From the NCBI GenBank assembly GCA_030648035.1, contig JAUSII010000122.1:24537-88536 (forward strand): 64,000 bases of DNA. The letters are read 5' to 3'. The notes under the pieces are model-generated. The model was not told the origin of the DNA. It made no database searches and worked only from the letters and a program-made list of their open reading frames with translations. This document shows, piece by piece, positions 3,414 through 46,782 of this stretch. The stretch comes from Deltaproteobacteria bacterium (GTDB taxonomy: Bacteria; UBA10199; SPLOWO2-01-44-7). The position numbers were made by a program, and so were the translations under genes. Position 1 is the stretch's first letter. Every line of letters begins with the position of its first letter.

Positions 3414-4414
3414 TGTTGTTTGGAGGCGGTGTTGAAGCGGATGCCGACGGAGAAGAGAACCGAAAAATCGACAGAGGGGCCGTCGGCCAGAATATCTTCC
3501 GAGAATCCGACCTGCCAGAAAAAGGGTTTGGCAAATCGGCCAAAACAGTTGTCACCGCGAACACCGATAACGAAATCCATCGGAATTCCATCCCACGTTT
3601 GCAAACCTGTCCCCTTCAGGCGCGGCGTTCCGCCGGTGAGTTGCACAATCGCGGCGGTATGTTCTGAAAAACTATATTCACCCGCCAGGGTATAATCAAA
3701 AAACGGCGTCTCCATCAGATTCAGAAATGCGTTATTGCCGCCGTCGACGAGATAATTGGTGTTGAGATATCCGTGCAGGCGCCGATACGATTTCTCCATC
3801 GCCACGCCAAAACCAAAACCGGCATTCCCCGACCCCAGCCCCCCTTCGGAATCACCGCTCGGAATTTTAAATCCAAACCGCCACGACAATCCCGGCACAA
3901 GTTCCCCTTCATGCAATAATTGATGTTTTGAAAACAGGGTGATGTCACCCAGATTTATTTTTTGGGAACCGGCATTATAGAGCAGACCTCCCCCGCGCGT
4001 GACGCGATAATTATAAACGTCATCGGCCACCTGATCTCTGCCGCCGTTGGGGAATCCGAAAAAATCGTGATAATTCTGGATAAAAGAGTCGAGAAAACCG
4101 CCGTCAAAATGAAGCAGAGGCACTTCGATCCCCACTTCCATATTCGGCAAAACGCCGTAGGTCGCCACCCAGCCGAGGCGCCAGAGTTCCATGTCGAGAT
4201 TTTCTCCAAAGGCGGGGGTCGATTCTTTTTCAAAAATATTGGAATAGGCCGAATCGACGCGCAATTCCAAAACTCCTTTGGGCAACACCTCCGCACGCGC
4301 GGGCAAAAGTGTGATGGTCTGCAGATAAACCGGATTCTGTGTGCGCAACGTGAGCGGACCTTGAGGTGTATAGAAATTGGCGTGGGCCACGGCGGGCAGA
4401 AGCAGTATTGTCAT
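3410..4414 (-). CDS. outer-membrane beta-barrel-like hypothetical protein (DUF3187-like)
   Basis: Signal peptide [12 protein letters not shown], with alternating amphipathic strands rich in G/Y/F. The start codon lies inside the GTCATTGCGAG repeat. Confidence 0.55.
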
Positions 4415-4480
4415 TGCGAGGCCCCAAAGGGGCCGTGGCAATCCCGCTGTTCCACTGGATTGCTTCGTCGCTGACGCTCC
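4410..4480. repeat. GTCATTGCGAGG...CCTCGCAATGAC nested-palindrome element, copy 1 of 5
   Basis: Terminal inverted repeats GTCATTGCGAG with internal GGCAATCCCG/CGGGATTGC palindromes. Confidence 0.8.
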
Positions 4481-4493
4481 TCGCAATGACACT

Positions 4494-5426
4494 TTAAGAT
4501 GCATGGTGTGTGAGAAATCGTTCTGCATCTATTGCGGCGGCGCAACCGGTGCCGGCGGCGGTCACAGCCTGACGATAAATGGAATCTTGCACATCGCCGC
4601 AGGCAAACACGCCGGGGATATCGGTGGCCATGGAGGGTTGCTTCTTTGTGACAATGTAACCTTTGGCATCAAGCTCCAGCTGGCCCTTGAAAAGTGCGGT
4701 GTTCGGTTTGTGGCCGATGGCAATGAACAACCCATCGCAAGCCAGATCGCTTTTTTGGCCGGTCTTCAGATTTTTCAATTTTACACCGGTCACCTTGCCT
4801 TGGGCGAGATCCATCACCTCTTCTATCGCGCTGTCCAAAACGAATTTGATTTTGGGATCATCCATGGCCCGCTTCTGCATGATTTTGGAGGCTCTAAAGG
4901 TGTCGCGCCGGTGAATAATAGTGACCTTGCTTGCAAATTTGGCCAGAAACGTGGCCTCTTCCATGGCGGTGTCGCCACCACCGACCACCACCACATGCTG
5001 ATTCTTGAAAAAGAAAGCGTCACAGGTAGCACAGGCCGAAACCCCTTTGCCCCAGAGTTTTTTCTCCGACTCCAGCCCCAACCACATGGCCGAAGCGCCG
5101 GTAGAAATAATCAGAGTTTCGCCCTCATACACCTGATCGCCCACCCAGATTTTAAAAGGTCTCTTGGAAAGATCGACTTTTGTCACATCACCTTGCAACA
5201 CTTCGGTGCCAAAACGAACCGCCTGCTCTTTCATCAGCACCATCAACTCCGGCCCCAGAATCCCCTTGGGAAAGCCGGGATAATTTTCGACATCAGAAGT
5301 AATCGTAAGCTGACCGCCGGGCTGTGTCCCCTCGATCAAAAGCGGTTGCAAATTCGCGCGCGCCGCATAGACCGCCGCCGTACAACCGGCACAACCCGAA
5401 CCCAAGATTATTACTTTATGAGACAT
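4494..5426 (-). CDS. trxB: thioredoxin-disulfide reductase
   Basis: FAD-binding GSGCAGCTAA, redox-active CATCD and NADPH-binding GGGDTA motifs; 310 aa. Confidence 0.95.
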   Translation of the reverse strand: MSHKVIILGSGCAGCTAAVYAARANLQPLLIEGTQPGGQLTITSDVENYPGFPKGILGPELMVLMKEQAVRFGTEVLQGDVTKVDLSKRPFKIWVGDQVYEGETLIISTGASAMWLGLESEKKLWGKGVSACATCDAFFFKNQHVVVVGGGDTAMEEATFLAKFASKVTIIHRRDTFRASKIMQKRAMDDPKIKFVLDSAIEEVMDLAQGKVTGVKLKNLKTGQKSDLACDGLFIAIGHKPNTALFKGQLELDAKGYIVTKKQPSMATDIPGVFACGDVQDSIYRQAVTAAGTGCAAAIDAERFLTHHAS

Positions 5427-5518
5427 AACGGTTGCGGAAAGTAGCCGCTACCTTTTGCAACGTCAAGAAGGGAATCTGTCATCTCGACTTTTACAAAAAA
5501 ATTGTTTAGAAAAACTTT

Positions 5519-6259
5519 ATGTCCTCTGTTCTCATTGCCGAGAAACTGACCCGTTGCTTCAACAATCTCTGTGCGGTCGATCATATCGATTTTGCGGTGC
5601 AGAAGGGGCATTGCTTCGGTTTTTTGGGACCCAACGGCGCCGGAAAAACGACGACGATCAAAATGATTTATGGCGCACTCACTCCCACATCGGGGAGCAT
5701 CACCCTTTTTGGCCTCCCCACAATGAAAAACTGGCGCGAGGTCAAAAAAAGATTGGGCGTCGTCACGCAAAAAGACATTCTGGAAGAGACGGTCTCCTGT
5801 TGGGACAATCTTCGAATGCAGGGGCGCCATTACGGGTTTGATGAAAAATTTATTCGAGAGCGCGGTGAATATCTTCTGAATCTTTTACAACTCTCCTCCC
5901 GCGCCAACGACCCGGTCTATCAATTTTCCGGCGGCATGAAGCGACGATTGAGCATCGCCAAAGGGTTGCTCAACGAGCCGGAACTTCTGCTTCTGGACGA
6001 ACCGACCACCGGCCTCGACCCGCAGGCGAGATTGCTGATGTGGAAAACATTGGAAGACATAAAATCGAAGGGAACCTCCATCCTGCTCACCACCCATTAC
6101 ATGCACGAAGCCGAAACGCTCTGCGACGATCTGGTCATCATCGACCACGGCAAAATCATCGCGCGCGGGGCGCCAAAATTGCTGATTGAAAAACAGGGGC
6201 GCAAAAATCTGGAAGAAGTTTTTCTGGAACTGACGGGAAGGGATTTGCGAAATGAATAA
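5519..6259 (+). CDS. ABC transporter ATP-binding protein (ABC-2 exporter type)
   Basis: Walker A GPNGAGKTT, signature LSGGMKRRL, Walker B LLLDEPTTGLD. Confidence 0.9.
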   Translation: MSSVLIAEKLTRCFNNLCAVDHIDFAVQKGHCFGFLGPNGAGKTTTIKMIYGALTPTSGSITLFGLPTMKNWREVKKRLGVVTQKDILEETVSCWDNLRMQGRHYGFDEKFIRERGEYLLNLLQLSSRANDPVYQFSGGMKRRLSIAKGLLNEPELLLLDEPTTGLDPQARLLMWKTLEDIKSKGTSILLTTHYMHEAETLCDDLVIIDHGKIIARGAPKLLIEKQGRKNLEEVFLELTGRDLRNE

Positions 6260-7034
6260 AAGAATCTGGTGGAAGGGAGTGTTGAGCGTCTGGTGGCGGA
6301 ATGCGCTGATGTATTCCAAAACCTGGAAACTGAACCTTCTCCCCAATTTTTTCGAGCCGGTTTTTTTTCTGATCGGTTTGGGATTGGGCGTCGGCTTCTA
6401 CATCCAGCAAATCAATGGCGTGCCATATCCTGTTTTTCTCGCACCCGGTCTGATCGCCATCGCCGCAATGAACGGTGCCAGCTTTGAATCAACCTACAAC
6501 GTCTATGTGCGGATGAATTACAATCGCACCTACGACGGCATCCTGGCGACACCGGTCAACGAAAACGAAATTGTGCTGGGAGAAATGTTCTGGTCAATCA
6601 CACGGGCCTGGATTTATGGCGGCGCATTTTATCTGATCACCTGCATGTTCGGATTGATTCCCTCGTGGTGGTCGGTCGGTGTTTTGGGAGTGCTGGTGCT
6701 GACCGGTTATCTTTTTGCCGGTATCGGCATGACCTTTTCGTTTGTCATCCCCGCGATCGATCTTTTCAGCGTCTACTTCACACTCTTTCTCACGCCATTG
6801 TATATTTTCAGCGACACTTTTTTTCCCCTGCAAGAAAGATTGGGAAGCCAATGGATGTGGATTGCAGAGCTCAATCCCCTCTTCCATTGTGTCCGCCTCA
6901 CAAGGGCCTTCACCATGGGGGAGTTTTCGTCGATACTGATTTGGGATCTGATTTATATCATTGCAGTCGGCGGCCTCTTCCATACACTGGCCCTGCGACA
7001 ATTTAAAAAGCGGATTCATCAACCGGCACGATGA
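6252..7034 (+). CDS. ABC-2 family transporter permease
   Basis: Six predicted TM segments; overlaps the ATPase gene by 8 nt, suggesting translational coupling. Confidence 0.85.
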   Translation: MNKRIWWKGVLSVWWRNALMYSKTWKLNLLPNFFEPVFFLIGLGLGVGFYIQQINGVPYPVFLAPGLIAIAAMNGASFESTYNVYVRMNYNRTYDGILATPVNENEIVLGEMFWSITRAWIYGGAFYLITCMFGLIPSWWSVGVLGVLVLTGYLFAGIGMTFSFVIPAIDLFSVYFTLFLTPLYIFSDTFFPLQERLGSQWMWIAELNPLFHCVRLTRAFTMGEFSSILIWDLIYIIAVGGLFHTLALRQFKKRIHQPAR

Positions 7035-8275
7035 CAAATTCAAAAACAGCTCTTGTATTATCGGGTGGGGGCGCACGCGGCGCTTATGAAGCTGGAGTGC
7101 TTTATCATCTTCGCGAGAAGGTCGCCCCCGATCGGCACGGCTTTGCCATTCACTGCGGCACCAGCGCCGGCAGTCTCAACAGCTGTTTTCTGGCCGCTAC
7201 CGCGCACGACCCCACGACGCAGGGAAAAAAATTGCGCCTGCTGTGGGAGAATCTTCGATCCTCCGATGTCTATCGCGGCGATTTTGGCGCCCTGACCCAA
7301 CTTCTCGCCCGTTCAGCCGCCTACACCACCACCCATCTTTTCGGGCTGTCGGGCCTGATAAAAAAATGGGCCGGAGATGTCAAACCATTCCAGGGCATTC
7401 TGGATACCAGCCCCTTCATCCCCTTTCTCAAAAAAGCGGTCCCCTTTTCGCAGATTCGCACCAACATCAAAAAAGGACTCCTCGATGCCATTGCCATCGC
7501 CACCACCAACCTCGGCAACGGAAAGCTGGAGCTCTTCATCGACAAACAAGACTCGGTCGCCTACACCGGCGCCTATCGCATCAAGATCGAACCGATCGAC
7601 TGGGTGCACGCCATGGCCTCCGCCGCGGTGCCCATCATCTTCCCTCCCATTCGCATCGGCCGATATTTTTATGTCGATGGAAGCATCCGCCAGAATACAC
7701 CGATGAGCCCCGCGGTCCAGTTGGGGGCCGACAAAATCATGATTATCGGCGTAAAATATAAACCCAATCTCGAAAACTCGGGGAGTTTTCCGGCGAATGA
7801 AGAGAGCCCCTACCCCAGCTTCACACATATGGCGGGCAAACTGCTCGATGCCCTTTTTCTGGATCACATCGACTATGATCTGGAACAGATGACCCGCATC
7901 AATCGCGTGATCGAATGGAGCGAACAGTTGTATGGGCCCACTTATCTGGAAGACATAAACACCATGTTGCGAAATAAAAAAATCAAAGGCGACATTGCCA
8001 ACCGGGGATTGAAAAAAATAGAGGCCTTCTCGTTTTTTCCGAGCGAAGATATCGGCAAAATTGCCTGTGAGCGGCTGATGAAGTTGAGCCGCAATAAGGC
8101 AAAACTCTCGCAGGTGGAGCGTTTCCTCCTCAAATTTATGGAGGTCGATCCCAAGGCCGACATGGATCTGTTGAGCTATCTTCTATTTGAAAAAGAATAT
8201 ATCGGCTCCCTGATCGACATCGGTATCAAGGATTGCAAGGCGAGAGAGAAAGAGTTGGCCCGGTTCCTGACATAG
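7031..8275 (+). CDS. patatin-like phospholipase
   Basis: Oxyanion-hole GGGARG, nucleophile GTSAG (GxSxG) and the DGS/DGG catalytic Asp motif. Confidence 0.85.
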   Translation: MTNSKTALVLSGGGARGAYEAGVLYHLREKVAPDRHGFAIHCGTSAGSLNSCFLAATAHDPTTQGKKLRLLWENLRSSDVYRGDFGALTQLLARSAAYTTTHLFGLSGLIKKWAGDVKPFQGILDTSPFIPFLKKAVPFSQIRTNIKKGLLDAIAIATTNLGNGKLELFIDKQDSVAYTGAYRIKIEPIDWVHAMASAAVPIIFPPIRIGRYFYVDGSIRQNTPMSPAVQLGADKIMIIGVKYKPNLENSGSFPANEESPYPSFTHMAGKLLDALFLDHIDYDLEQMTRINRVIEWSEQLYGPTYLEDINTMLRNKKIKGDIANRGLKKIEAFSFFPSEDIGKIACERLMKLSRNKAKLSQVERFLLKFMEVDPKADMDLLSYLLFEKEYIGSLIDIGIKDCKAREKELARFLT

Positions 8276-8409
8276 CCCCCATGTTTTAAATCCAAAACAG
8301 CTTGTCTCAAAACAGGACAATAAAAAGTTTCCTGCAAAAATCACGCGGGTCTGGGGTGGCATGTCCTTTGCATTGGTCCTGCACAAACAACCAAGAAAGG
8401 AACCATTTT

Positions 8410-9438: not shown

Positions 9439-9452
9439 CCGAAGATCACTGA

Positions 9453-10980
<1,528 letters not shown>

Positions 10981-11092: not shown

Positions 11093-12358
11093 ATGACACA
11101 TCTTATTTTCATGCGGGACAAAGAGGCTGTTCTCAAACGGCCGATCGAGGGCAACCGAATCACCATCGGGCGCGACACCACCTGCGACATCCAGTTCACC
11201 GAGCCCGAAATTTCCAGACTCCATTGCATTCTTGAAAGACAAAACGGTTTCTACCGGCTGACCGACCAGAGCCGCAACGGAACCTTCGTCAACCAGAAGC
11301 GCTCCAGCGAAGTCTCGCTTCGTCCGGGCGACACCATCGGCATCGGGCCGTGGTCGCTCGAAATTATTTCCGACCCGACTCCCGCGACGGAGGAGACCTT
11401 CGTCCATGAAAAACAGAAAAAGGGGATATCGCTCTGTTCCATGCTGGGGGTTTCCAAGGCGATGCGAAATGCGTTTCAACTCATTCGCAAGGCGGCGGCG
11501 AGCCATGCCACCGTCTGTCTGGTCGGAGAATCTGGAACCGGCAAAGAATTGGCGGCCCGCTCCATTCACGATCTGGGAGAGCGCCGCGACAAACCGTTTG
11601 TCGCCGTCAATTGCGGCGCCATCCCGCAAAATTTGATTGAGAGTTTGCTCTTTGGACATGAGCGGGGCTCTTTCACCGGCGCGACCGATCGACACAGCGG
11701 TGTTTTTGAAGAGGCGAATGGCGGAACACTTTTTCTGGACGAGATTGGAGAGATGCCGGTCGATTTGCAGACGCGTCTCTTGAGAGTTTTGGAGACGCAA
11801 ACCTTGAGACGCGTGGGAGGCAAGAGCGATATCAAGGTGAATGTCCGGCTGATCGCCGCCACCAATCGCAATCTGGACGAGATGGTTGCCGACGGAAGTT
11901 TTCGGCGCGATTTGTTTTATCGTCTCTATATTTTTCCGATCACACTCGCTCCCTTGCGCGAACGACGAGACGATATCCAACTCCTCGCAAAACATTTTTT
12001 GCAGATGCTTTCACCAACGGGGGAACAATGTTCCCTTTCGAATGAGGCCATCACCAAAATGGAAAGCCACGACTGGCGCGGCAATGTGCGCGAACTCAAA
12101 AATGTGATCCAGCGCGCCATACTCCTTTCAAAAAATAAAAACATTTCCGCGAAAGAGATTGAATGTTCCCCGCCAATACAAACCGCCGTTGAAATGGGAG
12201 AGTTGAATCTGGAGGATCAGGAAAAATGGTCGATCATCGATGCGTTGAAAAAAACGAGGGGGAACCAAGCCAAAGCCGCCCGCCATCTGGGGATTGCCCG
12301 CACCACGCTCGCGTCCAAACTAAGACGCCACAAACTGGATACGAAGAATTGGCGCTAG
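11093..12358 (+). CDS. sigma-54-dependent transcriptional activator with N-terminal FHA domain
   Basis: FHA domain ([13 protein letters not shown]...SRLHC...NGTFVN), AAA+ sigma54 module ([14 protein letters not shown]-like), C-terminal Fis-type HTH. Confidence 0.9.
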
Positions 12359-12431
12359 TGTCATTGCGAGGAGCGAAGCGACGTGGCAATCCCGATGATT
12401 ACCGGGATTGCGCAGCAATGCTCGCAATGAC
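12359..12431. repeat. GTCATTGCGAG nested-palindrome element, copy 2
   Basis: Same terminal inverted repeats and internal GGCAATCCCG/CGGGATTGC palindrome. Confidence 0.8.
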
Positions 12432-12432
12432 A

Positions 12433-12864
12433 TCACTTGTGCGCATTGATATAAACTTCCCGCGCCCTGTCGAAGGCGAGCTGTTGAATTTGCTGGGGGG
12501 CCACTTCAAACAGATCAAAAACCTGATCGATCGGAAAAGTCAAGAGCGTCACCTCGGTGATGGGCCCGCCTTGCTGGGCGCGGTTGGAACGACGACCCGC
12601 CAGCGCATTTTCAAAATCTTCCCAGACATGAAAAATTTTCATCAAGACCTGGTCGTTGCGGTTGGCAAGAAAATTTCGAAGGTTGTAGCTCTTTTCCAGA
12701 TAAACAATATCTGCATTGGAGGGTTGCCATTGAATCCGCCCCTCGTCATCGACCTTGTTGGGAATCCCCAACTCGGTCATCCAGGGCAAGTCATCCCCCA
12801 CTTTCAGATCGAAATCGAGAAGGGTTGCCGTTTTCTGCTTTTCAATGGGTGTCTCAATCGCCAT
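12433..12864 (-). CDS. hypothetical protein (143 aa)
   Basis: ORF with no family-level motifs. Confidence 0.45.
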   Translation of the reverse strand: MAIETPIEKQKTATLLDFDLKVGDDLPWMTELGIPNKVDDEGRIQWQPSNADIVYLEKSYNLRNFLANRNDQVLMKIFHVWEDFENALAGRRSNRAQQGGPITEVTLLTFPIDQVFDLFEVAPQQIQQLAFDRAREVYINAHK

Positions 12865-14813: not shown

Positions 14814-14821
14814 ATTAATTT

Positions 14822-14893
14822 GTCATTGCGAGGCCCGAAGGGCCGTGGCAATCCCGTAGACGCCGGGATTGCTTCGCTTTGCTCGCAATGACA
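14822..14893. repeat. GTCATTGCGAG nested-palindrome element, copy 3
   Basis: Same architecture; sits between ligA and the phosphatase gene. Confidence 0.8.
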
Positions 14894-14906: not shown

Positions 14907-15533
14907 TCACGATAAAATTTTATCCGCTTCCGAAAAATAGTTGAGCGCCACCAGACGATCACCCCACTCTGTGCCGAAACGATAGATGCTTAAAGAACCG
15001 TTATCACAACCGAGCGCCTGAAGATGATCGAGCGGCATGTCGAGATAGTGGAGCAGAATCATCTTGATGACATCGGCGTGCGAAACAACAACCACCCTCT
15101 GACCCTTGTGCGTCGCGCGCATTCGCTCAACCGCATCCACCGCACGCTTCTGCGCCGTCTTCACCGACTCACCACCGGGAATTTGCACGCCGGAGGCATT
15201 GGAATGATAATCGCTAAAAATTTTGCCATGCTGCTTTCGAACTTCCTCAAAAGTGAGCCCAACCCAGTCTCCGTAGTGGACCTCCGCAACCCCGGGCTCT
15301 TCGATAACGGAGAGGCCCTTTCGATCCGCGACCAAAATCTGTGCCGTCTCTTTGGCGCGCAACATGGGGCTCGAATAAACGGCATCGATCTCCATTTTGC
15401 AAAGCCAGTTTTTGAGATCCCCCGCCTGTTTTTTGCCAACATCGTTCAACGCGATCGGATTGTGGCCCATCACACGACGAATGACGTTCCAATCGGTCTG
15501 ACCATGGCGAACAAGAAGAAGATCGAGTGACAT
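14907..15533 (-). CDS. histidine phosphatase family protein (phosphoglycerate-mutase-like)
   Basis: Catalytic RHG motif LLLVRHGQTDWN. The longer ORF would run through tRNA-His, so the internal Met was used as start. Confidence 0.8.
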   Translation of the reverse strand: MSLDLLLVRHGQTDWNVIRRVMGHNPIALNDVGKKQAGDLKNWLCKMEIDAVYSSPMLRAKETAQILVADRKGLSVIEEPGVAEVHYGDWVGLTFEEVRKQHGKIFSDYHSNASGVQIPGGESVKTAQKRAVDAVERMRATHKGQRVVVVSHADVIKMILLHYLDMPLDHLQALGCDNGSLSIYRFGTEWGDRLVALNYFSEADKILS

Positions 15534-15665
15534 AGGGATATTTTTATCGGCAAAAGCGCCAAAAAAGTAAAGAGTTGAAACTTGCCACCATTTTGGTAAA
15601 GGAGGTCGGCTTGAAAATCCCCCGCTCATGCTGAGCTTGTCGAAGCATCGAAGGGTGTAACTAAT

Positions 15666-15741
15666 GGTGGCTATAGTGTAAGGGTTAGCACAAGAGATTG
15701 TGGATCTCTTTGTACGGGTTCGAATCCCGTTAGCCACCCCA
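15666..15741 (+). tRNA. tRNA-His(GUG) with encoded G-1 and CCA
   Basis: Extra 5' G, acceptor GUGGCUA/UAGCCAC, discriminator C, anticodon loop UUGUGGA, T-loop UUCGAAU. Confidence 0.9.
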
Positions 15742-18706: not shown

Positions 18707-18772
18707 AAATTCATCAGCTATGGACAGGAAAAAATTTAAAATTATTTTACGATGATGCCGGTTTTGTCCCCC

Positions 18773-19706: not shown

Positions 19707-21551
19707 TTAAGGCCAAAGAACACTGACCCCTTTGGCTCTCAGGGCATCGATTTGGGAGGAGGGAATTTGGGGGTTACCTTCAAGACCTACAAGATCATCA
19801 CCGTGATCCAATCCACTATTGCTAATAAGAGGATTGATATCTGAAATTTGATTTTCAGTCAGGAGAAGTATGTGTAAATTAATAAGCGACGAGAGGGGAT
19901 TTAAATCTGATATTTGGTTCCCATTAAGAACAAGCGAATACATATTAGTAAGCGCTGAAAGAGGTGCCAAGTCTGATATCAGGTTTTCATGAAGGGTGAC
20001 TCCGGACAAATTAACGAGTGATGCGAGAGGAGACAGGTCTGATATTTGATTATTGTGAAGCACTAGCCCGCCCAAATGTGTGAGCGGCGAAAGAGGGCTG
20101 AGATCTGCAATCTGGTTGTGATCCATATCAATGTTGATCAAATGAATAAGCGATGAAAGGGGGGATATGTCCTGTATCAGATTGTAAGAAAGATAAAGCT
20201 CGGTAAAACTGGCACTGGTAAGCGACGCAAGTGGGCTTAAATCCGATATTTGATTTCTCATAAGACTAAGCCGACGCAAATGAACCAGTGGCAGAAATGA
20301 AAGTGGGGACAAATCTGATATTTGGTTTTCATCAAGGCTCAATTCATAGAGAAGATTAGCAAAACATTCCAAGCCTGACAAATCCTGGATGTGTTTCCCA
20401 TGTAAGCCAATCCACAAGCCTGCGCTTGTTCTGTTTAATGTATCTTGCAATGTGAGATCATCAGTCGGGCCTTTTTCTAAACCTTGTCTTATTGCATTCA
20501 AAAGATTGGAATCTGCAAATGCATCGGTGATAATACCATCTCCATCCGGATCACAGTGTGTTCTGATATTTTGAGGAACAGTACAAACAAACCCCTCGTC
20601 TATTGAGACATTACAGTTATCATCAATATCATTACAATCCTCAACAGCCCCCGGATTTATGTTACCGGCATTATCGTTGCAATCTCCCTCTACGTCGGTC
20701 CAGCCCGACGGATACTTCGAACTCGACAGGCTTGAGCAAACTTCAATGGAATCATTTAAACTTCCATAACCATCATTGTCTACGTCGTGATAAAGGCTCT
20801 TGAAATTGGTGCATTCCGGAGGACCTGCATCTTGATGCCCAGCGTCTGAATGCAAAACCGTTGCGCCAGCATCACGCGCCCCACCGTCCAAATGATCTTT
20901 CCCGCCATGCCATCCATCGACATCCATCTCATTATCGTTTTGACCATTCTGGGAAGGATATCCACAACCAAAAACAGCCATTGCTGAGGCCATTGCAACA
21001 TCACGCACACTCACTCCATTTTGATTCTCTGCCGTATACTTTCCTTTTGGTATCGTCCCTTCACCAAATTTGTAGAAATAGACGCCCGTAACACGGTGAA
21101 TATAATCTCTAAAACCTTCGTCCGATTTCCATCCAATGGATTGCGCAAACCATCCACTTTTTTGTGTTTTGGAATTTGTTATAGCTGGCTCTAAACTGTA
21201 AACATCATTTTTTGAGAATGATGCCAAAGCTCTGTGTTGATTATGGTCTACGGAGGACTTATTTTCCGGAGAACAAACACCTTTAATTGACCAGCCCATA
21301 TTATTAACCTTTCTCTTTCGCCACTCCGTGTAACCCCATACAGTAAGGGTTATCGTCGGTATAGCAAAAAAAGTTGCGTAAAGAGGACCATTAAAGTAGA
21401 GGGGTCCAACTTGGCCCCTTTTTCCGGTGCTTTTCACTCTCGTATCGGTGGCACTCACCGCTATTTTTCTGTATTCGCTATCTTGCTTATTTGGTAGTCT
21501 CCGTCTGATGTTTTTTATTTTCTCCAGGTTGTCTCTTCTTTTTTTGCTCAT
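19707..21551 (-). CDS. leucine-rich-repeat protein (internalin-like LRRs), signal-anchored
   Basis: At least 8 tandem 22-aa LRRs (LxxLxLxxNQISDLSPL) and an Asp-rich middle region. Confidence 0.8.
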   Translation of the reverse strand: MSKKRRDNLEKIKNIRRRLPNKQDSEYRKIAVSATDTRVKSTGKRGQVGPLYFNGPLYATFFAIPTITLTVWGYTEWRKRKVNNMGWSIKGVCSPENKSSVDHNQHRALASFSKNDVYSLEPAITNSKTQKSGWFAQSIGWKSDEGFRDYIHRVTGVYFYKFGEGTIPKGKYTAENQNGVSVRDVAMASAMAVFGCGYPSQNGQNDNEMDVDGWHGGKDHLDGGARDAGATVLHSDAGHQDAGPPECTNFKSLYHDVDNDGYGSLNDSIEVCSSLSSSKYPSGWTDVEGDCNDNAGNINPGAVEDCNDIDDNCNVSIDEGFVCTVPQNIRTHCDPDGDGIITDAFADSNLLNAIRQGLEKGPTDDLTLQDTLNRTSAGLWIGLHGKHIQDLSGLECFANLLYELSLDENQISDLSPLSFLPLVHLRRLSLMRNQISDLSPLASLTSASFTELYLSYNLIQDISPLSSLIHLINIDMDHNQIADLSPLSPLTHLGGLVLHNNQISDLSPLASLVNLSGVTLHENLISDLAPLSALTNMYSLVLNGNQISDLNPLSSLINLHILLLTENQISDINPLISNSGLDHGDDLVGLEGNPQIPSSQIDALRAKGVSVLWP

Positions 21552-26435: not shown

Positions 26436-26650
26436 AGAGTATAACGTTACACTTTATGGTTTGTCAACCGTGCAGAAGGAAGCGGCTACCTTCTGCAACG
26501 AGATCGGCGCCAAATGGATTGAGGTGCTTATAATGACATTTCCATGGCACTTCGTTGCAGAAGGTAGCCGCTTCCTTCTGCAGTCAGTCAAAGAAATAGG
26601 CCGACATCTCTTGACACACAGCACTGAAATCGACTAAGTGCTCACAACTT

Positions 26651-31572: not shown

Positions 31573-31573
31573 A

Positions 31574-33105: not shown

Positions 33106-34923
33106 ATGAGAGTCCGCAAAAAGTTATTCACGAAGTTGCTCACGAAGTTGTTGGTGTCTTTGTCTCTGTCTCTGGCCACTCTGGTAACAGGTTGTGGCGG
33201 GAGTGATGGCGGAGGAGGGGTAGCAGGAACAACCACCGCCCTGGCCAACGTCGTTGTCCCCACTGTAAGTTCCACAAACCCTGCTGATGGTGATGTCGGT
33301 GTATTCATCAACAGAAAGGTGACTGCGGTATTCAGTGAGGATATGGACCCTGCAACCATCGACGACACAGTCTTTGTTTTAAACCAGGGAAGCGTGCCTG
33401 TTTCAGGTGTTGTAACCGCATCGGGTAACGCGGCCACCTTCACGCCCACAGGCAACTTGGGGATAAGCACCGTCTATACGGCAACGATCACGACCGGAGC
33501 CACCAGCTTGGCAGGTAATGGATTGGCCGCCAGTGAAGTATGGAGTTTTACGACAGGGACGACGGCAGATTCCACCGCCCCAACGGTGAGTTCCACAAAC
33601 CCGGTCAACGCGGCCACAGGTGTGGCCATCAACAGTACAGTCGCCGCATCCTTTAGCGAAGAGATGGATCCCCTGACGCTCACGACCTCCACTTTTCAAG
33701 TTTCAGGTCCTGACTCCGTTCTTGTCGCGGGGACGGTCAGCTATGCTTTGGTAGGCAACGTCGCAACCTTTACTCCCACAAGCAGTCTTGCAGTCAACAC
33801 CCTATTTACAGCAACAATCTCTACCGGTGCCAAAGACCTCGCGGGCAATGCGTTGGATTCCAGTAATGTATGGAGCTTTACAACAGGTGCAGTGGCGGAC
33901 AGTGTCGCCCCCACCGTCAGTTCCACCAACCCTGCTGATGCCGATGTGAGTGTGGCTCTTAACAAGACAATCTCCGCCACCTTCAGTGAGTCGATGAACG
34001 CCGCAACAATCACCACGGCAAACTACACATTGGCAGGGCCCGGCGCGGTTCCCGTCACAGGAACAGTCGACTATGTTTTGGCAACCAACATTGTAACCTT
34101 TACTCCCGCAAGCAATCTCGCACCGAGCACCTTATTTACAGCAACGATCAGCACCGGTGCCAAGGATCTCGCGGGGAATGCATTGGCTTCCAATAAAGTG
34201 TGGACCTTTACATCAGGGACAGAAGCGGCTCAGACTGTCGCTCAAACAGTAGTCCCCCTTGGATCGTCTTCCACCTTCGCGATTCTGGCTTCTGCGGCAA
34301 TCACCAGTATCCCGACTTCATCCGTTATCGGAGATATCGGTCTGACCCCGGATGCCGGATCCAATCTCACCGGGTTAACATGTTCAGAAATAACAGGCAC
34401 AGTCTACGTCACCAGTGCGGGTGGCAGTACTCTCGCCTGTCAGACCATCAGCGCGAGCATTCTCGATACCGCCAAAACCGATGCGGCCACTGCGTTCACC
34501 AATGCCAGGGACGCTGTTCGCGGAACACCTGCATCCATATCGGGCAATCTGAATGGTCTCACGCTGTATCCCGGGCTGTATGAATCGGGCACCTCGCTTG
34601 AGATATCCGCTGGCGGCATCCTTTATCTGGATGCTCAAGGCGATGCGGATGCCATCTTCGTCATCCGGAGTGAAACCTCCATCACCACACTGTCCACAAG
34701 CCAGATCGTCTTGACCAAAGGCGCAAAGGCCAACAACGTCTACTGGACAGCGGGAAGTGCGGTGACTCTGGGAGCCAACTCGATCATGAAGGGAACTTTC
34801 ATCGCGGGTACTGCGCTCACACTGCAGACCGGTGCAAACCTGGAAGGAAGAGCGTTGAACCAGGGTGCATCCGCCGCGGCGATTTCACTCGACGCCAGCA
34901 CTATTACCGTGCCTTCACCGTAG
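33106..34923 (+). CDS. secreted protein: 4 bacterial Ig-like (SbsA/Big_5-type) repeats + C-terminal DUF3494 ice-binding-like domain
   Basis: Lipobox/signal VTGCGG. Repeats APTVSSTNP...FTPxxNLAxxTLFTATIxTGAKDLAGNAL. C-terminal FAILASAAIT...GNLNGLTLYPGLYESG...NVYWTAGSAVTLGANS matches the DUF3494/IBP fold signature. Confidence 0.85.
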   Translation: MRVRKKLFTKLLTKLLVSLSLSLATLVTGCGGSDGGGGVAGTTTALANVVVPTVSSTNPADGDVGVFINRKVTAVFSEDMDPATIDDTVFVLNQGSVPVSGVVTASGNAATFTPTGNLGISTVYTATITTGATSLAGNGLAASEVWSFTTGTTADSTAPTVSSTNPVNAATGVAINSTVAASFSEEMDPLTLTTSTFQVSGPDSVLVAGTVSYALVGNVATFTPTSSLAVNTLFTATISTGAKDLAGNALDSSNVWSFTTGAVADSVAPTVSSTNPADADVSVALNKTISATFSESMNAATITTANYTLAGPGAVPVTGTVDYVLATNIVTFTPASNLAPSTLFTATISTGAKDLAGNALASNKVWTFTSGTEAAQTVAQTVVPLGSSSTFAILASAAITSIPTSSVIGDIGLTPDAGSNLTGLTCSEITGTVYVTSAGGSTLACQTISASILDTAKTDAATAFTNARDAVRGTPASISGNLNGLTLYPGLYESGTSLEISAGGILYLDAQGDADAIFVIRSETSITTLSTSQIVLTKGAKANNVYWTAGSAVTLGANSIMKGTFIAGTALTLQTGANLEGRALNQGASAAAISLDASTITVPSP

Positions 34924-34952
34924 GTACCCAGTGAACGCATAAGTTTTATGAA

Positions 34953-34989
34953 AACCCCCTGCACCGAAAGGTGCAGGGGGTTTTTATTT
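34953..34989 (+). terminator. rho-independent terminator (CCCCCTGCACC-GAAA-GGTGCAGGGGG + T-run)
   Basis: 11-bp GC-rich stem, GAAA loop, then TTTTTATTT. Confidence 0.85.
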
Positions 34990-35007
34990 GTGTCTTCGCG
35001 TCATCTT

Positions 35008-35044
35008 ACTCCCCCCCCTTTGAAAAAGGGGGGTTAGGGGGGGA
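35008..35044. repeat. G/C-tract palindrome (C8TTTGAAAAAG6-type), copy R1
   Basis: CCCCCCCCTTTGAAAAAGGGGGG; related to the copies at 35236, 35679 and 37472. Confidence 0.7.
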
Positions 35045-35053
35045 TTTAATCTC

Positions 35054-35305
35054 ATGCTCGAATACGATGCCAATTTGAAAAAATACTCACGACTACTTAG
35101 AAACAAAATGACAGATAGTGAGCGCAAGCTGTGGTCTCGGCTTCGCAAAAAACAGATTTTAACCGTGTTGCGTTTTGACAATTTAAAGGTGTTGCAAGAG
35201 ATGGATGGAGTCATGAGAACGGTTGGCGGGAGAAAATCCCCCCTGCCCCCCCTTTTTCAAAGGGGGGGAATAAAATGCACACACACTACCGGTCTCTTTT
35301 TATAA
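35054..35305 (+). pseudogene. truncated DUF559 (Vsr-like endonuclease domain) gene fragment
   Basis: N-terminus LLRNKMTDSERKLWSRLRKKQ matches the DUF559 N-terminus. The frame then runs into the G/C-tract palindrome (translated PLPPLFQRGG) with no catalytic half. Confidence 0.5.
35236..35290. repeat. G/C-tract palindrome CCCCCCCTTTTTCAAAGGGGGGG + AATGCACACAC tail, copy R2
   Basis: Shares the palindrome and the AATGCACAC(A/G)C tail with R3 and R4. Confidence 0.7.
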
Positions 35306-35567: not shown

Positions 35568-35678
35568 AATTCTGAAATCCTCTTTTTACAAAACTTTACA
35601 ATATATTTTATAAGTTAATGTATTTCATGTGTTTTTAAGACTGAATGTCAGGATGACTCCGTAGGGCACATTTTTGAA

Positions 35679-35725
35679 TTCCCCCCCTTTTTCAAAGGGG
35701 GGAGTAAAAAGTAAAATGCACACTC
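35679..35725. repeat. G/C-tract palindrome copy R3, flanked by a 40-bp direct repeat (35627-35672 / 35738-35783)
   Basis: CCCCCCCTTTTTCAAAGGGGGGAGTAAAAAGTAAAATGCACAC; the flanking direct repeat is TTTTTAAGA..GTCAGGATGACTCCGT.GGG.A. Confidence 0.7.
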
Positions 35726-35740
35726 ATTACTCATGCCCGG

Positions 35741-37471: not shown

Positions 37472-37522
37472 ATCCCCCCTTACCCCCCTTTTTCAAAGGG
37501 GGGAGTGAAATGCACACGCATT
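37472..37522. repeat. G/C-tract palindrome copy R4
   Basis: CCCCCCTTTTTCAAAGGGGGGAGTGAAATGCACACGC. Confidence 0.7.
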
Positions 37523-37542
37523 CTTGCCCGCTTCTATTCAGC

Positions 37543-42347: not shown

Positions 42348-42393
42348 TTTTTATTCCTCGGAAAGTACGCGTGGGAATCTACTTTGTGGAAAT

Positions 42394-43068: not shown

Positions 43069-43218
43069 CTTCTTGTGTTATGCGCCTTTCATCGGAACAA
43101 TGACAAGTCTTCACTTCAGTCTACACCCTGATGGACTGACCTGTAACCCTTTTATTTTCTTATTTCCATGAGGGAAAACCGTATTTTCAAATGGGGGAAT
43201 CCCCCAGAGTTTGGGCAT

Positions 43219-43292
43219 TGTCATTGCGAGCGCAGCGAAGCAATCCCGTTGATCATCGGGATTGCCACGGCCCCTTCGGGGCCTCGCAATGA
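43219..43292. repeat. GTCATTGCGAG nested-palindrome element, copy 4 (with adjacent half-motif GGAATCCCCCAG at 43193-43215)
   Basis: Full element with terminal inverted repeats. Its 3' flank CTTTGTCAACAAACTCTTAAG + P2 is duplicated at 46770-46858. Confidence 0.8.
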
Positions 43293-43313
43293 CACTTTGT
43301 CAACAAACTCTTA

Positions 43314-43360
43314 AGAAAATCCCCCAGTCAAAAATCGTGGTTCCCCCGATTGTAACCCCT
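43314..43360 (+). promoter_or_regulatory. regulon motif copy P2 (AAAATCCCCCAGTCAAAAATCGTGGTTCCCCCGATTGTAACCCC)
   Basis: About 90 bp upstream of 43451. Confidence 0.7.
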
Positions 43361-43450
43361 CGCCAAAGGCACGTGTGGTGAGGGCTTGACTAAAACACAA
43401 GAAATGGAATACGAACTTTTAAATATTGGGCGGAAGAGAAGAAGGGGAAA

Positions 43451-46400
43451 ATGAGTATGACCGACGGAATATGTTTTAGACCGAATCAAAGCCATTCTGA
43501 AGCAGAAGATGCCAATATGTCCTGTGCGTCTTTTGAATCTTTCAGCTCATCGACCGTTCAGACAGAAGGGGCAGATTCTGGAGGACGAGAACGTTTTTTA
43601 GCGGGCAGAGATTATCTAAGAGATTTGGAAGGGCGTTCTGTTCTGCCAGATGGCTACAAGGGCAAATCCAATGGTATTCCTTTAGGGATATTCGCTGTTG
43701 CCGGCGTTACTGGAACAACAGTGGGACTTATTGCAACGCCTGCAGTTGGACTTGCCGTGGGAGGAGCTATTTTATTGTCCGGATGTTCGGATACAGACAA
43801 CCCAAAGGGAAAAACAGATTCTTCGGCAGAACCGGTATGTAATAAAAATTCTGATTGCAATCCCCCTGTCACAGTTTGTAAAGAGGGAACCTGCCAACCT
43901 CCTAAACCCTGCAATGATGATGAAGATTGCGAGGGAGAAAATGTAAATACTCAATGCGATGATGCTTTGGGAGTATGCAGAGAAAATACCACTTCAATTG
44001 AAATTTGTGACGGCTTAGATAACAACGAGGATGGTAAAATTGATATCGATCCTCAGACAGGTGAAAAAATTTCGAAACCCTGCGGTGGCCGGAGTGTTGG
44101 AATATGCCGTCCAGGGGCACAACACTGCGACGCCGAAAAGAACTCTGCTCAAGAACATTGGAGCGATTGTACAGGAGTTGTTCCGAAAAAGAATGAGCAG
44201 TGTAATGGATTAGATGATGACTGTGATGGCTTAACGGATGAAGACCTGCCCGAATGCGGCCTTCATGTTCCCGTTTTAAATCCGATTGGTGACAAAATTA
44301 TTGATGAGGGACAGCGGTTGAGGTTTGTTTTGTCAGCAGTGGATGCGGATGATAATCCGTTAACCTATTTTGCATCTCACCTTCCGGAGGGAGCTAGATT
44401 TGATCCGGTCGACCGCGTTTTTGATTGGACCCCCAGTTTTGAACAGGCGGATGTCTATTCAGACATTCACTTTGGAGTGAGTGATGGGATAACTACGACT
44501 GGTGAAGATATTACGATCACCGTTCAAAATGTGAATCGTCGGTGTGTCATGTCTCCAATTCCAGATCAGACGGTGGATGAAAATGAATCTTTGGTTGTGA
44601 CCGTAAATGCATCCGACCCGGATGTGGATGACACGTTGATTTTTAGCGGAGATAACTTACCAGCAGGTGCGACAGTAAACTCGAGCACCGGAAAATTAAA
44701 CTGGAGACCCACCCTTACGCAAGCCGGAGCATACCGAGACATCGGGATCACGGCGACAGATGGGGATATGAGCTGTAACCAGCATTTTGATGTTGCGGTT
44801 ATCAATGCCAACCGACCGCCGGTAATGGACGCCATCTCCAATCAGACCATCAATGAAAATCAATTACTCACCGTTACCCCACGGGCCTCCGATCCAGATG
44901 GTCAAACCTTAAATTTCAGTGGCAATAATTTGCCTCGTGGTGCGGTAGTCAATCCAACTACAGGAGTGTTGACTTGGACACCCGGCTTCGATCAGGCCGG
45001 CTCATATCCAAACGTGGGGATCACCGCGAGTGATGGGAGTTTAAGCGTTACACAAAGATTTAGTATAACCGTTAATAATGGAAACAGGCCGCCAGTAATG
45101 GAAGCCATCCCCAATCGGACTATCAATGAGAATCAATTACTTACCATCACCCCACGGGCCTCTGATCCAGACGGTCAAACTTTAAATTTCAGTGGCAATA
45201 ATTTACCCCGCGGTGCGGCAGTTAATTCAACTACAGGGGTGTTGACTTGGACCCCCGGCTTCGATCAAGCGGGCACATACCCAAACGTGGGGATCACCGC
45301 GAGTGATGAAAATTTAAGCGTCACACAAAGATTTAGTATCACCGTTAATAACGTAAACAGTCCTCCAATTTTAAATTCAATCGGCAATAGAACTGTCAAT
45401 GAAGGAGGATTGTTGACGTTTACCGTTTTTGCATCCGATCCAGATGGAGATGCGCTGACCTATTCCGCCTCCAATCTGCCGACGGGATCGAGTTTTAATG
45501 TTTCAACGAGAGTTTTCAGTTGGACACCAAATTGCAGGCAAGCGGGTGCATATCCGGTAAGTTTTTCTGTGACAGATCGTGGGACACCCAATTTATCAGA
45601 TAGTGAAAATGTTATGGTCACAGTTAACGAAGCCTGTTCCAATGTTGCGTGGACTAGAACATATAATGGATCGTTTAATGGTAGGGATATCGGCCATGGC
45701 ATCGCCGTGGATAATAATGGGAATGTGTATGTGACGGGTTCTGAGGAGGCTACTGAACTAAATTATAATATTTGGGTCAGGAAGTATGATGCCAATGGCA
45801 ACACTTTATGGACAAGGACCTATAATGGCTCTGCTAATAGTACTGATGAAGGCCGAGGCATCGCCGTAGATAATAATGGAAATGTGTATGTGACTGGGTC
45901 TGAAATTGTTGCCGGGCAACGTAGTAATGTTTGGGTTAGAAAATATGATACCAATGGCAATGCTTTATGGACCGAAACCTATAATAATCCTGCTAACAGT
46001 TCGGATGAAGGTCACGGCATCGCTGTAGATAATAATGGGAATGTGTATGTAGCGGGAGATGAGAATGTTGCTGTACAATATGCTAATATCTGGGTCAGAA
46101 AATATGATGCCAATGGCAATGCCTTATGGACCAAGACCTATAATAATCCTGCTAATGGTCCTGATATGGGCCAAGGCATTGCCGTAGACAATGTTGGAAA
46201 TGTGTATGTGACGGGTTTTGAGGATGCTGATGAGGAATCTTTTAATATCTGGATCAGGAAGTATGATGCCAATGGCAATACTTTATGGACAAGGACCCAT
46301 AATGCCAATTGGGGAGATTTCGGCAACGGTATTGCCGTAGACGGAAATGGAAATGTGTATGTGACGGGTTCTGAGACTGTTGTTGCGGGAAATGATAATA

Positions 46401-46714
46401 TATGGATCAGGAAATATGATACCAATGGCAATACTTTATGGACGGAAACCCATAATGGATCTGCTAATAATCTGGATAGTGGCAATGGCATTACCATAGA
46501 TAGAAATGGAAATGTGTATGTGACGGGTTTTGAAGCTGTTGCTGGAGGAGGTGGAAATGTCTGGGTCAGAAAATATGATACCGATGGTAACACTCTATGG
46601 ACGGAGACCCATAATGGTGGTGTCGGCCAAGGTATCGCCGTAGATATTAATGGGAATGTGTATGTGACGGGGCAGGAGAACGGAGATATCTGGGTCAGAA
46701 AGTATGTGCCGTAG
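43451..46714 (+). CDS. giant surface protein: Cys-rich MopE-like N-region, >=5 cadherin-like/He_PIG Ig repeats, C-terminal 8-bladed SBBP beta-propeller
   Basis: TM/lipobox around LLSGCSD. ~92-aa repeats PPVMxAIxNxTINENQLL...FSITVNN include two near-identical tandem copies. Eight NIWVRKYDxNGNxLWTxTYNG...GIAVDNNGNVYVTG units match the SBBP repeat. Confidence 0.8.
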   Translation: MSMTDGICFRPNQSHSEAEDANMSCASFESFSSSTVQTEGADSGGRERFLAGRDYLRDLEGRSVLPDGYKGKSNGIPLGIFAVAGVTGTTVGLIATPAVGLAVGGAILLSGCSDTDNPKGKTDSSAEPVCNKNSDCNPPVTVCKEGTCQPPKPCNDDEDCEGENVNTQCDDALGVCRENTTSIEICDGLDNNEDGKIDIDPQTGEKISKPCGGRSVGICRPGAQHCDAEKNSAQEHWSDCTGVVPKKNEQCNGLDDDCDGLTDEDLPECGLHVPVLNPIGDKIIDEGQRLRFVLSAVDADDNPLTYFASHLPEGARFDPVDRVFDWTPSFEQADVYSDIHFGVSDGITTTGEDITITVQNVNRRCVMSPIPDQTVDENESLVVTVNASDPDVDDTLIFSGDNLPAGATVNSSTGKLNWRPTLTQAGAYRDIGITATDGDMSCNQHFDVAVINANRPPVMDAISNQTINENQLLTVTPRASDPDGQTLNFSGNNLPRGAVVNPTTGVLTWTPGFDQAGSYPNVGITASDGSLSVTQRFSITVNNGNRPPVMEAIPNRTINENQLLTITPRASDPDGQTLNFSGNNLPRGAAVNSTTGVLTWTPGFDQAGTYPNVGITASDENLSVTQRFSITVNNVNSPPILNSIGNRTVNEGGLLTFTVFASDPDGDALTYSASNLPTGSSFNVSTRVFSWTPNCRQAGAYPVSFSVTDRGTPNLSDSENVMVTVNEACSNVAWTRTYNGSFNGRDIGHGIAVDNNGNVYVTGSEEATELNYNIWVRKYDANGNTLWTRTYNGSANSTDEGRGIAVDNNGNVYVTGSEIVAGQRSNVWVRKYDTNGNALWTETYNNPANSSDEGHGIAVDNNGNVYVAGDENVAVQYANIWVRKYDANGNALWTKTYNNPANGPDMGQGIAVDNVGNVYVTGFEDADEESFNIWIRKYDANGNTLWTRTHNANWGDFGNGIAVDGNGNVYVTGSETVVAGNDNIWIRKYDTNGNTLWTETHNGSANNLDSGNGITIDRNGNVYVTGFEAVAGGGGNVWVRKYDTDGNTLWTETHNGGVGQGIAVDINGNVYVTGQENGDIWVRKYVP

Positions 46715-46724
46715 AAAAAACCAT

Positions 46725-46782
46725 CCCGGGATTGCCCCCTTCGACAAGCTCAGGGTGAGCGGTGTTGAAGGGCCTCGCAATG
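46725..46782. repeat. GTCATTGCGAG element, partial copy 5 (right half only)
   Basis: CCCGGGATTGC...GGGCCTCGCAATGAC with the left terminus absent; followed by the same spacer + P3 as at copy 4. Confidence 0.7.

Follow-up and report, generated by a model that had tools for sequence, protein, structure and literature searches.

What accounts for five short intergenic stretches, each palindromic and each alike, in a 64,000-nucleotide stretch of DNA from a Deltaproteobacteria bacterium (lineage UBA10199; contig JAUSII010000122.1, positions 24,537 to 88,536; hereafter the window)? A preliminary description made from the letters alone had compared these repeats to REP (repetitive extragenic palindromic) sequences and to MITEs (miniature inverted-repeat transposable elements). 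The first comparison was right in kind. The explanation that best fits our results as a whole, to which we assign a probability of about three in four, is that each element is an inverted dimer of a REP-type hairpin unit belonging to the CGTC-tagged superfamily and, seemingly, to an uncatalogued family within it. We refer to the five copies as E1 to E5 (Table 1) and to the family, after its stem, as the ATTGC family.

Five copies of one palindromic element

The window has nine exact matches to the 11-mer GTCATTGCGAG, both strands counted; the chance expectation at up to one mismatch is 1.65, and none of 100 shuffled sequences reached nine. The nine matches pair into four complete palindromic elements and one right-hand arm, with TGTCATTGCGAG exact at all nine termini. 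The five repeats are thus real, and the starts first given for them were correct to within one base. Their length had been put at about 75 bp; the complete elements measure 83, 74, 73, and 76 bp, with limits (Table 1) that include an extra T...A pair.

Read in a common orientation, an element consists of TGTCATTGCGAG, a variable module, CGTGGCAATCCCG, a spacer of 7 to 10 nt, C(G/T)GGATTGC, a second and shorter module, and CTCGCAATGACA. The first module is a GC hairpin with an AAA or GAA triloop in three complete copies, so the structural formula proposed earlier holds for those at 4410, 14822, and 43219 (opposite strand); it fails for the copy at 12360, where GAGCGAAGCGAC replaces the hairpin.

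The long imperfect hairpin attributed to the elements was borne out by folding for the complete copies but not for the half copy. As RNA, both strands of all four complete copies fold into a predicted structure more stable than that of any of 200 shuffles (z from -5.3 to -6.7), and single-stranded DNA folding of two of them, E3 and E4, gave z values of -5.9 and -6.7. The half copy, E5, showed no significant fold (z from -0.9 to -2.0). A mismatch-tolerant scan of the window returned no additional ATTGC-family copy; it returned instead one arm of a sister family (281-308, minus strand).

The single arm as the conserved unit

To describe the anatomy of the family, we used 258 distinct complete dimers, with arm statistics from 201 short and 100 long arms. 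Most often the arms are arranged as dimers; 133 termini lie outside the complete set, some of them in longer or imperfect dimers. The short arm reads GTCATTGCGAG-CGNAGCGAA-GCAATCC. The long arm reads GTCATTGCGAG-GA-GCGNAGC-GAC-GAA-GCAATCC or carries, in place of GCGNAGC, a hairpin of any length; we call this position the slot. Asymmetric dimers predominate, and the asymmetry of the modules gives an internal loop: the commonest class has modules of 15 and 9 nt (65 copies), followed by 9 and 9 nt (37 copies) and 16 to 19 and 9 nt (35 copies).

The unit is conserved in the manner of a single-stranded hairpin that is read inwards, starting at the tag. Short and long arms alike have an invariant stem, ATTGC...GCAAT. 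Where variants of it occur, the two halves change together within the arm: ATTCT/AGAAT arms are complementary in 9 of 11 cases and ATCGC/GCGAT arms in three of four, and in at least two of these three compensated cases the partner arm keeps ATTGC. In the cap GCGNAGC of the short arms, the central base is free (A in 81, C in 67, G in 22, and T in 31) and its six neighbors are 94 to 100% invariant. Whatever its N, this heptamer is the extraordinarily stable DNA "mini-hairpin" of Hirao and coworkers, with two G-C pairs and a sheared G.A pair; it melts at 70 to 76°C and resists exonucleases, a stability that standard energy parameters do not capture (PMC13037366). The slot is strand specific: among distinct slot hairpins with a triloop, C-GNA-G lies on the tag-inward strand in 24 and on the other strand (TNC) in one. 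Long arms also prefer a YG dinucleotide ahead of GCAAT (45 versus 14). After GCAAT, the tail of the 201 short arms is C (197), C (163), and A (153), and the window copies have CCC or CCA.

Outside the termini, conservation ends quickly. In 195 oriented copies, base -1 is a pyrimidine in 94% (C in 132, T in 52, A in 7, and G in 4) and base +1 is a purine in 97% (G in 65% and A in 32%). These two bases complement each other in 82% of copies, where about 53% would be expected. The flanks show no conservation beyond position 2 and no direct duplication. From these comparisons, the selected unit appears to be a single arm folded on itself, and the dimer can also form one long hairpin.

Distribution across bacteria, viruses, and plasmids

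How far does the family extend beyond the window? We scanned one genome per species, as well as viral contigs, for two termini 35 to 65 nt apart. At least 118 genome loci, from at least nine phylum-level groups, carry the same termini with the inner box CGAAGCAATCC. According to their record titles, the matches listed include Bradyrhizobium and other Alphaproteobacteria, Gamma- and Betaproteobacteria, Pedobacter, Mucilaginibacter, Flavobacterium, Chloroflexota, Planctomycetota, Cyanobacteria, Patescibacteria, Desulfobacterales, Zixibacteria, and Moduliflexus. Some of the carriers are isolates, from Pseudomonadota and Bacteroidota. Contamination is argued against because subfamilies track taxonomy; those of Bacteroidota, for example, have 7-nt modules and long AT-rich spacers.

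At least 120 viral or gene transfer agent (GTA) contigs carry the element as well. About 30 of the viral-contig matches listed are alphaproteobacterial GTA clusters, and others listed are true phage contigs with SPP1-type portal genes. These phage contigs hold up to three dimers. They also have solo arms at most gene junctions, immediately ahead of the ribosome-binding site or start codon and, for the most part, oriented alike with respect to the genes. Plasmid records carry the element unannotated, with at least 40 copies on one 1.76-Mb Novosphingobium replicon. The family is therefore very widespread rather than confined to the window. Its gene contexts are convergent in 36 cases, divergent in 17, and tandem in 94, and the median distance to a stop codon is 22 nt.

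The arms also occur in more complex settings (loci outside the window bear our numbers, L). Other small palindromic repeats are often nested in the long-arm slot (L007, L114, L048, and L044). In phage and Coxiellaceae contigs, arms or the terminal 11-mer form tandem arrays with a spacing of 16 to 41 nt, which could be footprints of repeated insertion or arrays of binding sites. Array sites are L222 692-815, L231 470-545, L237 6571-6670, L066 635-705, and L055 2729-2790, on phage, Coxiellaceae, and Sphingobacterium contigs; the repeated unit is a whole REP arm (41 nt) or the terminal 11-mer with a G-rich flank (16 to 35 nt). In-frame coding inserts, similar to the Rickettsia palindromic elements (RPE), are represented by one clear case: in L240 (5133-5168), the solo arm GTCATTGCGAGGGGTGATCGCCCCGAAGCAATCCAG is read in frame as VIARGDRPEAIQ within a 228-amino-acid (aa) HhH-GPD/endonuclease III-like open reading frame (ORF; 4596-5282), between the HhH-GPD domain and a C-terminal cysteine cluster. 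Other GTCAT...ATGAC palindromes lie in GTA intergenic gaps (L151 2696-2902, L173 2226-2362, and L135 2261-2445), for example, GTCACCCTGAACTTGTTTCAGGGTCCA, GTCATCCCGACGAAAGTCGGGACCCA, and GTCATGGCCGGGCCTGACCCGGCCATCCC; the last appears to match CGTC-3 according to the peptide lists in PMC3733652.

Evidence for insertion

Two kinds of comparison bear on whether the copies were inserted. The nearest metagenome relative, L239 (ligA 69% identical), has the gene order of the window: histidine phosphatase, ligA, a small ORF, and a convergent sigma-54 activator. At the places corresponding to E3 and E2, its genes overlap and there is no spacer; E2 and E3 are therefore insertions. In GTA clusters, orthologous junctions between the same genes occur both filled and empty, at 75 to 80% identity, a level at which the exact junction is not readable. 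These sequence comparisons show that copies entered this lineage as insertions into very short or absent intergenic spacers, mostly just past stop codons.

Relationship to known repeat systems

Di Nocera, De Gregorio, and Rocco sorted REPs in 2013 into GTAG-tagged and CGTC-tagged superfamilies (PMC3733652). CGTC REPs have a tag that is often TGTC or CCTC, a stem that starts with A-T and T-A pairs, and a tail near CCA. They are mostly dimers, lie within about 20 bp of the 3' ends of ORFs, and sometimes sit within DNA-repair genes. No transposase is linked to them, association with transposases being merely fortuitous in that survey. Neisseria dRS3 and Rickettsia RPE-4 and RPE-6 belong to this superfamily.

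Judged by sequence, the window elements are members of the same superfamily, all of whose features they share. The unpaired C/TGTC tag is present at 9/9 window termini; the stem starts with A-T and T-A pairs, kept in the ATTCT/AGAAT and ATCGC/GCGAT variants, and the tail is of the CCA type. Inverted dimers with variable spacers prevail (four dimers and one solo arm in the window). They sit close to the 3' ends of ORFs, within about 20 nt, where the neighboring ORFs are convergent or co-directional. There is an occasional in-frame copy in a DNA-repair gene (here L240) and no linked transposase. Carriers are mainly Alphaproteobacteria, with other phyla too.

Other traits set the family apart. 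New here are the GCGNAGC mini-hairpin cap, stem covariation inside single arms, a hairpin slot that is strand specific, and the wide range of hosts. The slot of any length in one arm is a feature of the ATTGC family, and its translations (..ARND.. and ..AKQS..) are absent from the lists of intragenic copies in PMC3733652. Beyond the groups named in that paper, we find it in Chloroflexota, Planctomycetota, Cyanobacteria, Patescibacteria, Desulfobacterota, Zixibacteria, phages, and GTAs.

The GTAG-tagged REPs and their doublets, REPINs (REP doublets forming hairpins), which are associated with RAYTs (REP-associated tyrosine transposases), are imperfect hairpins of 25 to 35 nt with a mismatched middle and an unpaired 5' tetranucleotide (PMC3116915, PMC3479197, and PMC5581495). 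The likeness lies in inverted doublets that also fold as one long hairpin, in an extragenic location past stop codons, and in recognition as single-stranded DNA, the working model for both. The tag differs: we rejected assignment to GTAG REPs since the window copies have (C/T)GTC followed by A, and GTAG (or GTGG) is found at none of them. REPINs are lineage specific and vertically inherited, whereas the ATTGC-family sequence is nearly identical over at least nine phylum-level groups.

Mini-hairpins of the type d(GCGNAGC)/d(GCGAAAGC) are known from the phage G4 origin, RSF1010 ssiA, and the phage N4 early promoters (PMC13037366). The identical heptamer, with its free middle base, caps each arm here, and C-GNA-G triloops cap the slot hairpins. 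Those sites, in contrast, are single functional sites in single-stranded replicons; ours is a dispersed chromosomal repeat known from sequence.

Correia elements (Correia repeat enclosed elements), ERIC (enterobacterial repetitive intergenic consensus) sequences, and other bacterial MITEs are palindromes of about 70 to 150 bp that are cotranscribed, can alter mRNA processing and stability, and sometimes supply start codons or promoters. They differ from the present element in having a target-site duplication (TA for Correia) and in being restricted to a genus or family.

We also considered attC and dif/Xer sites and rejected both because their core motifs are absent on reading the sequence. 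Translated elements matched no Pfam or NCBIfam family, and literature searches by nucleotide string or typical translated peptides gave primer matches or nothing. In Rfam, the window has only three tRNAs at gathering thresholds.

Mode of spread

The family is common to many phyla, phages, and GTA clusters, and no transposase gene travels with it. Our searches for one covered the window, the element-carrying loci (2.1 Mb), and plasmid records. The preliminary description had suggested a cognate RAYT or IS200/IS605-type TnpA; phmmer with Escherichia coli RayT (Y1, IS200/IS605 type) found no homolog among 13,381 ORFs of the window and the 2.1 Mb of loci, and tblastn against plasmids found RAYT only in records without the element. 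Five RAYT genes from distant taxa were examined (Neisseria, Chloroflexota, the cyanobacteria Kovacikia and Gloeocapsa, and Methylomonas), and GTAG REPs flank every one of them. No transposase lies between distant arm pairs in the 2.1 Mb, and the ORFs between close element pairs on phage contigs are structural genes, with no nuclease or transposase. Near the element, just one protein cluster recurs in many bacterial loci (16), a generic ABC transporter; the other recurrent neighbors are GTA or phage structural genes, and no DNA-binding protein gene is linked to the element among them.

The cap, the compensated stem changes inside arms, the strand-specific slot, and the host breadth together lead us to suggest that the unit is recognized as folded single-stranded DNA. 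It comprises an unpaired (C/T)GTC tag, the stem ATTGC/GCAAT, a purine-rich G.A region, the GC-GNA-GC cap, and a CC(A/C) tail, and would be copied in folded form by a factor acting in trans. Candidates are an HUH-type or other structure-specific enzyme and host replication or repair. Hairpin loops and gene ends may be tolerated or even preferred targets. Once inserted, the dimer would be cotranscribed with its neighbors, and a stable hairpin 0 to 14 nt past a stop codon could protect the upstream mRNA end or disturb termination or translational coupling; such effects on neighboring genes are conjectural. It would not act as a classical terminator. That role, proposed at the outset, was rejected: no T-run follows any copy (flanks ACACTTTAAG, ACATCACTTG, ACAATACGG, and ACACTTTGTC), and none of 18 terminator-like sites between 4000 and 16000 coincides with an element.

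The CGTC-tagged REPs have remained puzzling, since no enzyme is known to copy them, and the family offers leads. It provides a nearly invariant unit over distant phyla, phages, and GTAs; a cap that is the most stable known DNA mini-hairpin, with only the extruded base free; compensation within the arm; and a strand-specific slot that also receives nested insertions. These leads give defined oligonucleotide substrates and point to recognition of folded single-stranded DNA.

Several results weigh against reading the elements as dimers of a mobile, CGTC-tagged hairpin unit. Among the loci compared, no filled and empty pair exceeded 95% identity, so the exact junction and target were not read; in locus pairs of more than 94% identity, the indels were repeats of other kinds and yielded no exact ATTGC-family junction. 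No candidate for the copying enzyme was identified here, and movement as single-stranded DNA is what we infer. The families CGTC-1 to CGTC-4 have a stem of 8 to 9 bp and a loop of 4 to 5 nt, whereas the ATTGC arm has five Watson-Crick pairs, a G.A or bulge region, two G-C pairs, and a 3-nt GNA loop. Since these dimensions are not matched, the ATTGC...GCAAT family is probably not among the four; it may overlap with the "Bradyrhizobium CGTC-1 with other loops" of PMC3733652, whose authors remark that bulged units may have been missed. Of 25 changes in the 11-nt termini, none is compensated in the opposite arm, which fits copying from conserved masters but lends no support to the long hairpin. 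Nearest-neighbor energies for a single arm of DNA give the expected shape but a z of about 0 against shuffles; support for the single-arm hairpin is thus comparative. Finally, orientation relative to transcription is weakly biased in bacterial tandem contexts (43 versus 28).

A bolder version of this reading, which we consider unlikely, would treat the ATTGC family, and with it the whole CGTC-tagged superfamily, as pan-bacterial replicators structured as single-stranded DNA that spread through a universal host process, without a dedicated transposase. Recognition would be of the tag together with a hairpin whose cap is a GNA or GNNA mini-hairpin, and the process could be lagging-strand replication, hairpin processing, priming, or phage and GTA DNA metabolism, with preferred insertion into hairpin loops and into the gap between stop codon and ribosome-binding site. 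If true, it would explain the near-identity across phyla, the nested elements, and the high density in phage genomes.

Alternatively, the elements might be kept mainly for a function as RNA, with mobility secondary. They would then be cotranscribed intercistronic hairpins, in which an asymmetric internal loop separates two stems of 10 to 11 bp, comparable to phage T7 RNase III sites or to Correia and ERIC hairpins, and they would determine the 3' ends or stability of mRNAs or the coupling of translation. The strong folding of both strands as RNA is consistent with this, as are the copies 0 to 14 nt past stops and between co-directional genes, the largely uniform orientation of phage solo arms ahead of ribosome-binding sites or starts at most junctions, and the typically asymmetric dimers whose 15- and 9-nt modules give an internal loop. 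PMC3733652 likewise argues that many REPs act as RNA. Yet no element has an Rfam match even at E values up to 5, no copy is followed by a U-tract, and terminal changes are uncompensated. A requirement for structure alone leaves the invariant 11-mer and box unexplained, and C-GNA-G triloops and GCGNAGC are hallmarks of DNA rather than RNA stability. At E1 and E3, the GNA strand of the slot hairpin runs antisense to the genes on either side, one window copy lies in a divergent promoter region, and the bacterial orientation bias (43:28) is weak. We judge this possibility, too, to be improbable.

Less likely still, the 11-mer and inner box could be duplex binding sites of a widespread DNA-binding protein (a nucleoid, replication, or recombination factor or a phage regulator), similar to iterons or operators, rather than mobile DNA. 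Extreme conservation across phyla, four ATTGC/GCAAT boxes that alternate in orientation, and the tandem 11-mer arrays with a 16- to 41-nt spacing (L222, L231, L237, L066, and L055) would suit such sites. Left unexplained are the hairpin slot, which accepts any stem sequence with strand-specific GNA loops, the compensatory changes within arms, and the free N at the center of GCGNAGC; the copies are dispersed at unrelated gene ends, some in frame within genes, and no DNA-binding protein gene is linked to them in the loci examined.

That the elements are ordinary MITEs, deletion derivatives of insertion sequences with terminal inverted repeats YGTCATTGCGAG moved by cut and paste with a DDE transposase, is very improbable: short elements in many copies at unrelated sites, with inverted termini perfect over 12 bp and insertions visible against empty sites, would fit, but the flanks are complementary (pyrimidine at -1 and purine at +1 in 94 to 97% of copies) instead of identical, leaving no target-site duplication, in 2.1 Mb no transposase is enclosed by two distant arms, solo arms and the hairpins inside arms behave as REP units do, and the published survey finds transposase association only fortuitous (PMC3733652). 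The MITE label of the preliminary description is accordingly dropped.

Gene context of the window copies

Table 1. Coordinates, parts, and neighboring genes of the repeats in the window
Feature	Position	Strand	Composition	Neighboring genes
E1, complete REP dimer	4409-4491	+	Left arm: TGTC tag, ATTGC stem, slot hairpin, GTGGCAAT, CCC tail	Thioredoxin-reductase-like gene stop (4494-4496, minus); DUF3187 gene
E1 slot hairpin	4420-4434	+	GGCCCC-AAA-GGGGCC	
E1 spacer	4447-4456			
E1 right arm	4457-4491		GGATTGC...CTCGCAATGACA	
E2, complete REP dimer	12359-12432	+	Long arm with GA-GCGAAGC-GAC (GCGNAGC mini-hairpin motif)	Fills entire gap between convergent stops: TAG 12356-12358 (sigma-54 activator) and TCA 12433-12435 (TGA of minus-strand 143-aa ORF)
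E3, complete REP dimer	14821-14893	+	Long arm: slot hairpin GGCCC-GAA-GGGCC	Histidine-phosphatase stop (14907-14909, minus); ligA ATG (14813-14811, minus)
E3 short arm		-	GTCATTGCGAG-CAAAGCGAA-GCAATCC	
E4, complete REP dimer, inverted relative to E1-E3	43219-43294	-		Divergent promoter region: LuxR-type response regulator (start 43068) and 1087-aa SBBP/He_PIG repeat protein (start 43451)
E4 short arm (left)		+	GTCATTGCGAG-CGCAGCGAA-GCAATCC	
E4 long arm		-	Slot GGCCCC-GAA-GGGGCC	
E5, single long arm, partner arm missing	46725-46785	-	CCCGGGATTGCC, slot, CCTCGCAATGACA	
E5 slot content			36-nt nested hairpin CCCTTCGACAAGCTCAGGGTGAGCGGTGTTGAAGGG	
Sister-family arm	281-308	-	TGTC-ATTCT-GAG-TGAAGC-GA-AGAAT-CCC (GGGATTCTTCGCTTCACTCAGAATGACA); stem ATTCT/AGAAT, compensated change	

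The position at gene ends noted earlier holds for four of the five copies, which lie 0 to 14 nt downstream of a stop codon. E3 lies 14 nt past the histidine-phosphatase stop and 8 nt ahead of the ligA start, and E5 begins 10 nt after the stop TAG at 46712-46714. For annotation, the family accounts for the five intergenic stretches of the window and, in other genomes, for numerous small ORFs that are spurious and would encode peptides like ..LLRFARND.. and ..VIASEAKQS...

Calls of gene starts are affected as well. E1 had been said to supply the start codon of the gene beside it, here identified as a DUF3187 gene. This is plausible: the ATG at 4414-4412, within the terminal CAATGAC of E1, is in frame with the gene and falls at the start of the Pfam profile, so the gene may start inside a copy. 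A second candidate ATG, at 4504 and overlapping the upstream stop codon, is the alternative; it would turn all of E1 into 30 N-terminal coding residues, the only reading under which E1 is coding.

At E4 and E5, the element had been thought to travel with a regulon promoter motif. The two do share a right flank of about 80 nearly identical nucleotides that includes this promoter-like motif (43305-43353, 11 nt downstream of E4, and 46797-46845 at E5). The simplest reading of the sequence is that a single segmental duplication, rather than linked transposition, produced the shared flank and that E5 then lost its left arm; only two of the eight copies of the motif have the element. The motif, AATCCCCCAGTCAAAAAyCnnGnnTCCCCCGATTGT, spans about 49 nt per copy, with two TCCCCC boxes about 21 nt apart, and starts at 18766, 32983, 43305, 46797, 47374, 48230, 49973, and 60673. 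Several copies precede ORFs, among them genes for large repeat proteins (SBBP/He_PIG at 43451).

Other repeats in the window

The core of the hairpin in the E5 slot recurs, reverse complemented, at 15622-15645 beside a tRNA gene. It is part of a second repeat module, CTTCGACAAGCTCAGGGTGAGCGG, found with its reverse complement (two mismatches) at 15620-15655 and 46739-46762; the first copy precedes the tRNA gene (15667-15738) by 12 nt, and the other lies inside the E5 slot. A shorter related stretch, GAGCTTGTCGAGGGG, occupies the element slot of a Patescibacteria locus (L045). The sister-family arm is the right arm of a decayed dimer (219-308), whose decayed partner arm, upstream, spans about 219-262 with a CCCC-GAA-GGGG hairpin at 223-233.

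The window also holds repeats of other kinds. A separate hairpin family, CCCCCC(C)TTTGAAAAAGGGGGG, occurs in both orientations within 2.5 kb (35006-35047, 35233-35271, 35678-35707, and 37474-37510); just upstream of it, at 34905-35063, are weak Thr-leader-like Rfam matches, well below threshold. Paralogous segments at 33534-34770 and 48537-49760, 15 kb apart and about 66 to 84% identical, contain internal repeats of about 325 nt and represent duplicated repeat-protein genes. A perfect 31-nt inverted repeat lies at 26471-26501 and 26552-26582, with a 50-nt spacer, and five copies of a 40-nt unit (..TCTGATATTTGGTT..) lie at 19889-20336, with spacings of 66 to 72 and 204 nt.

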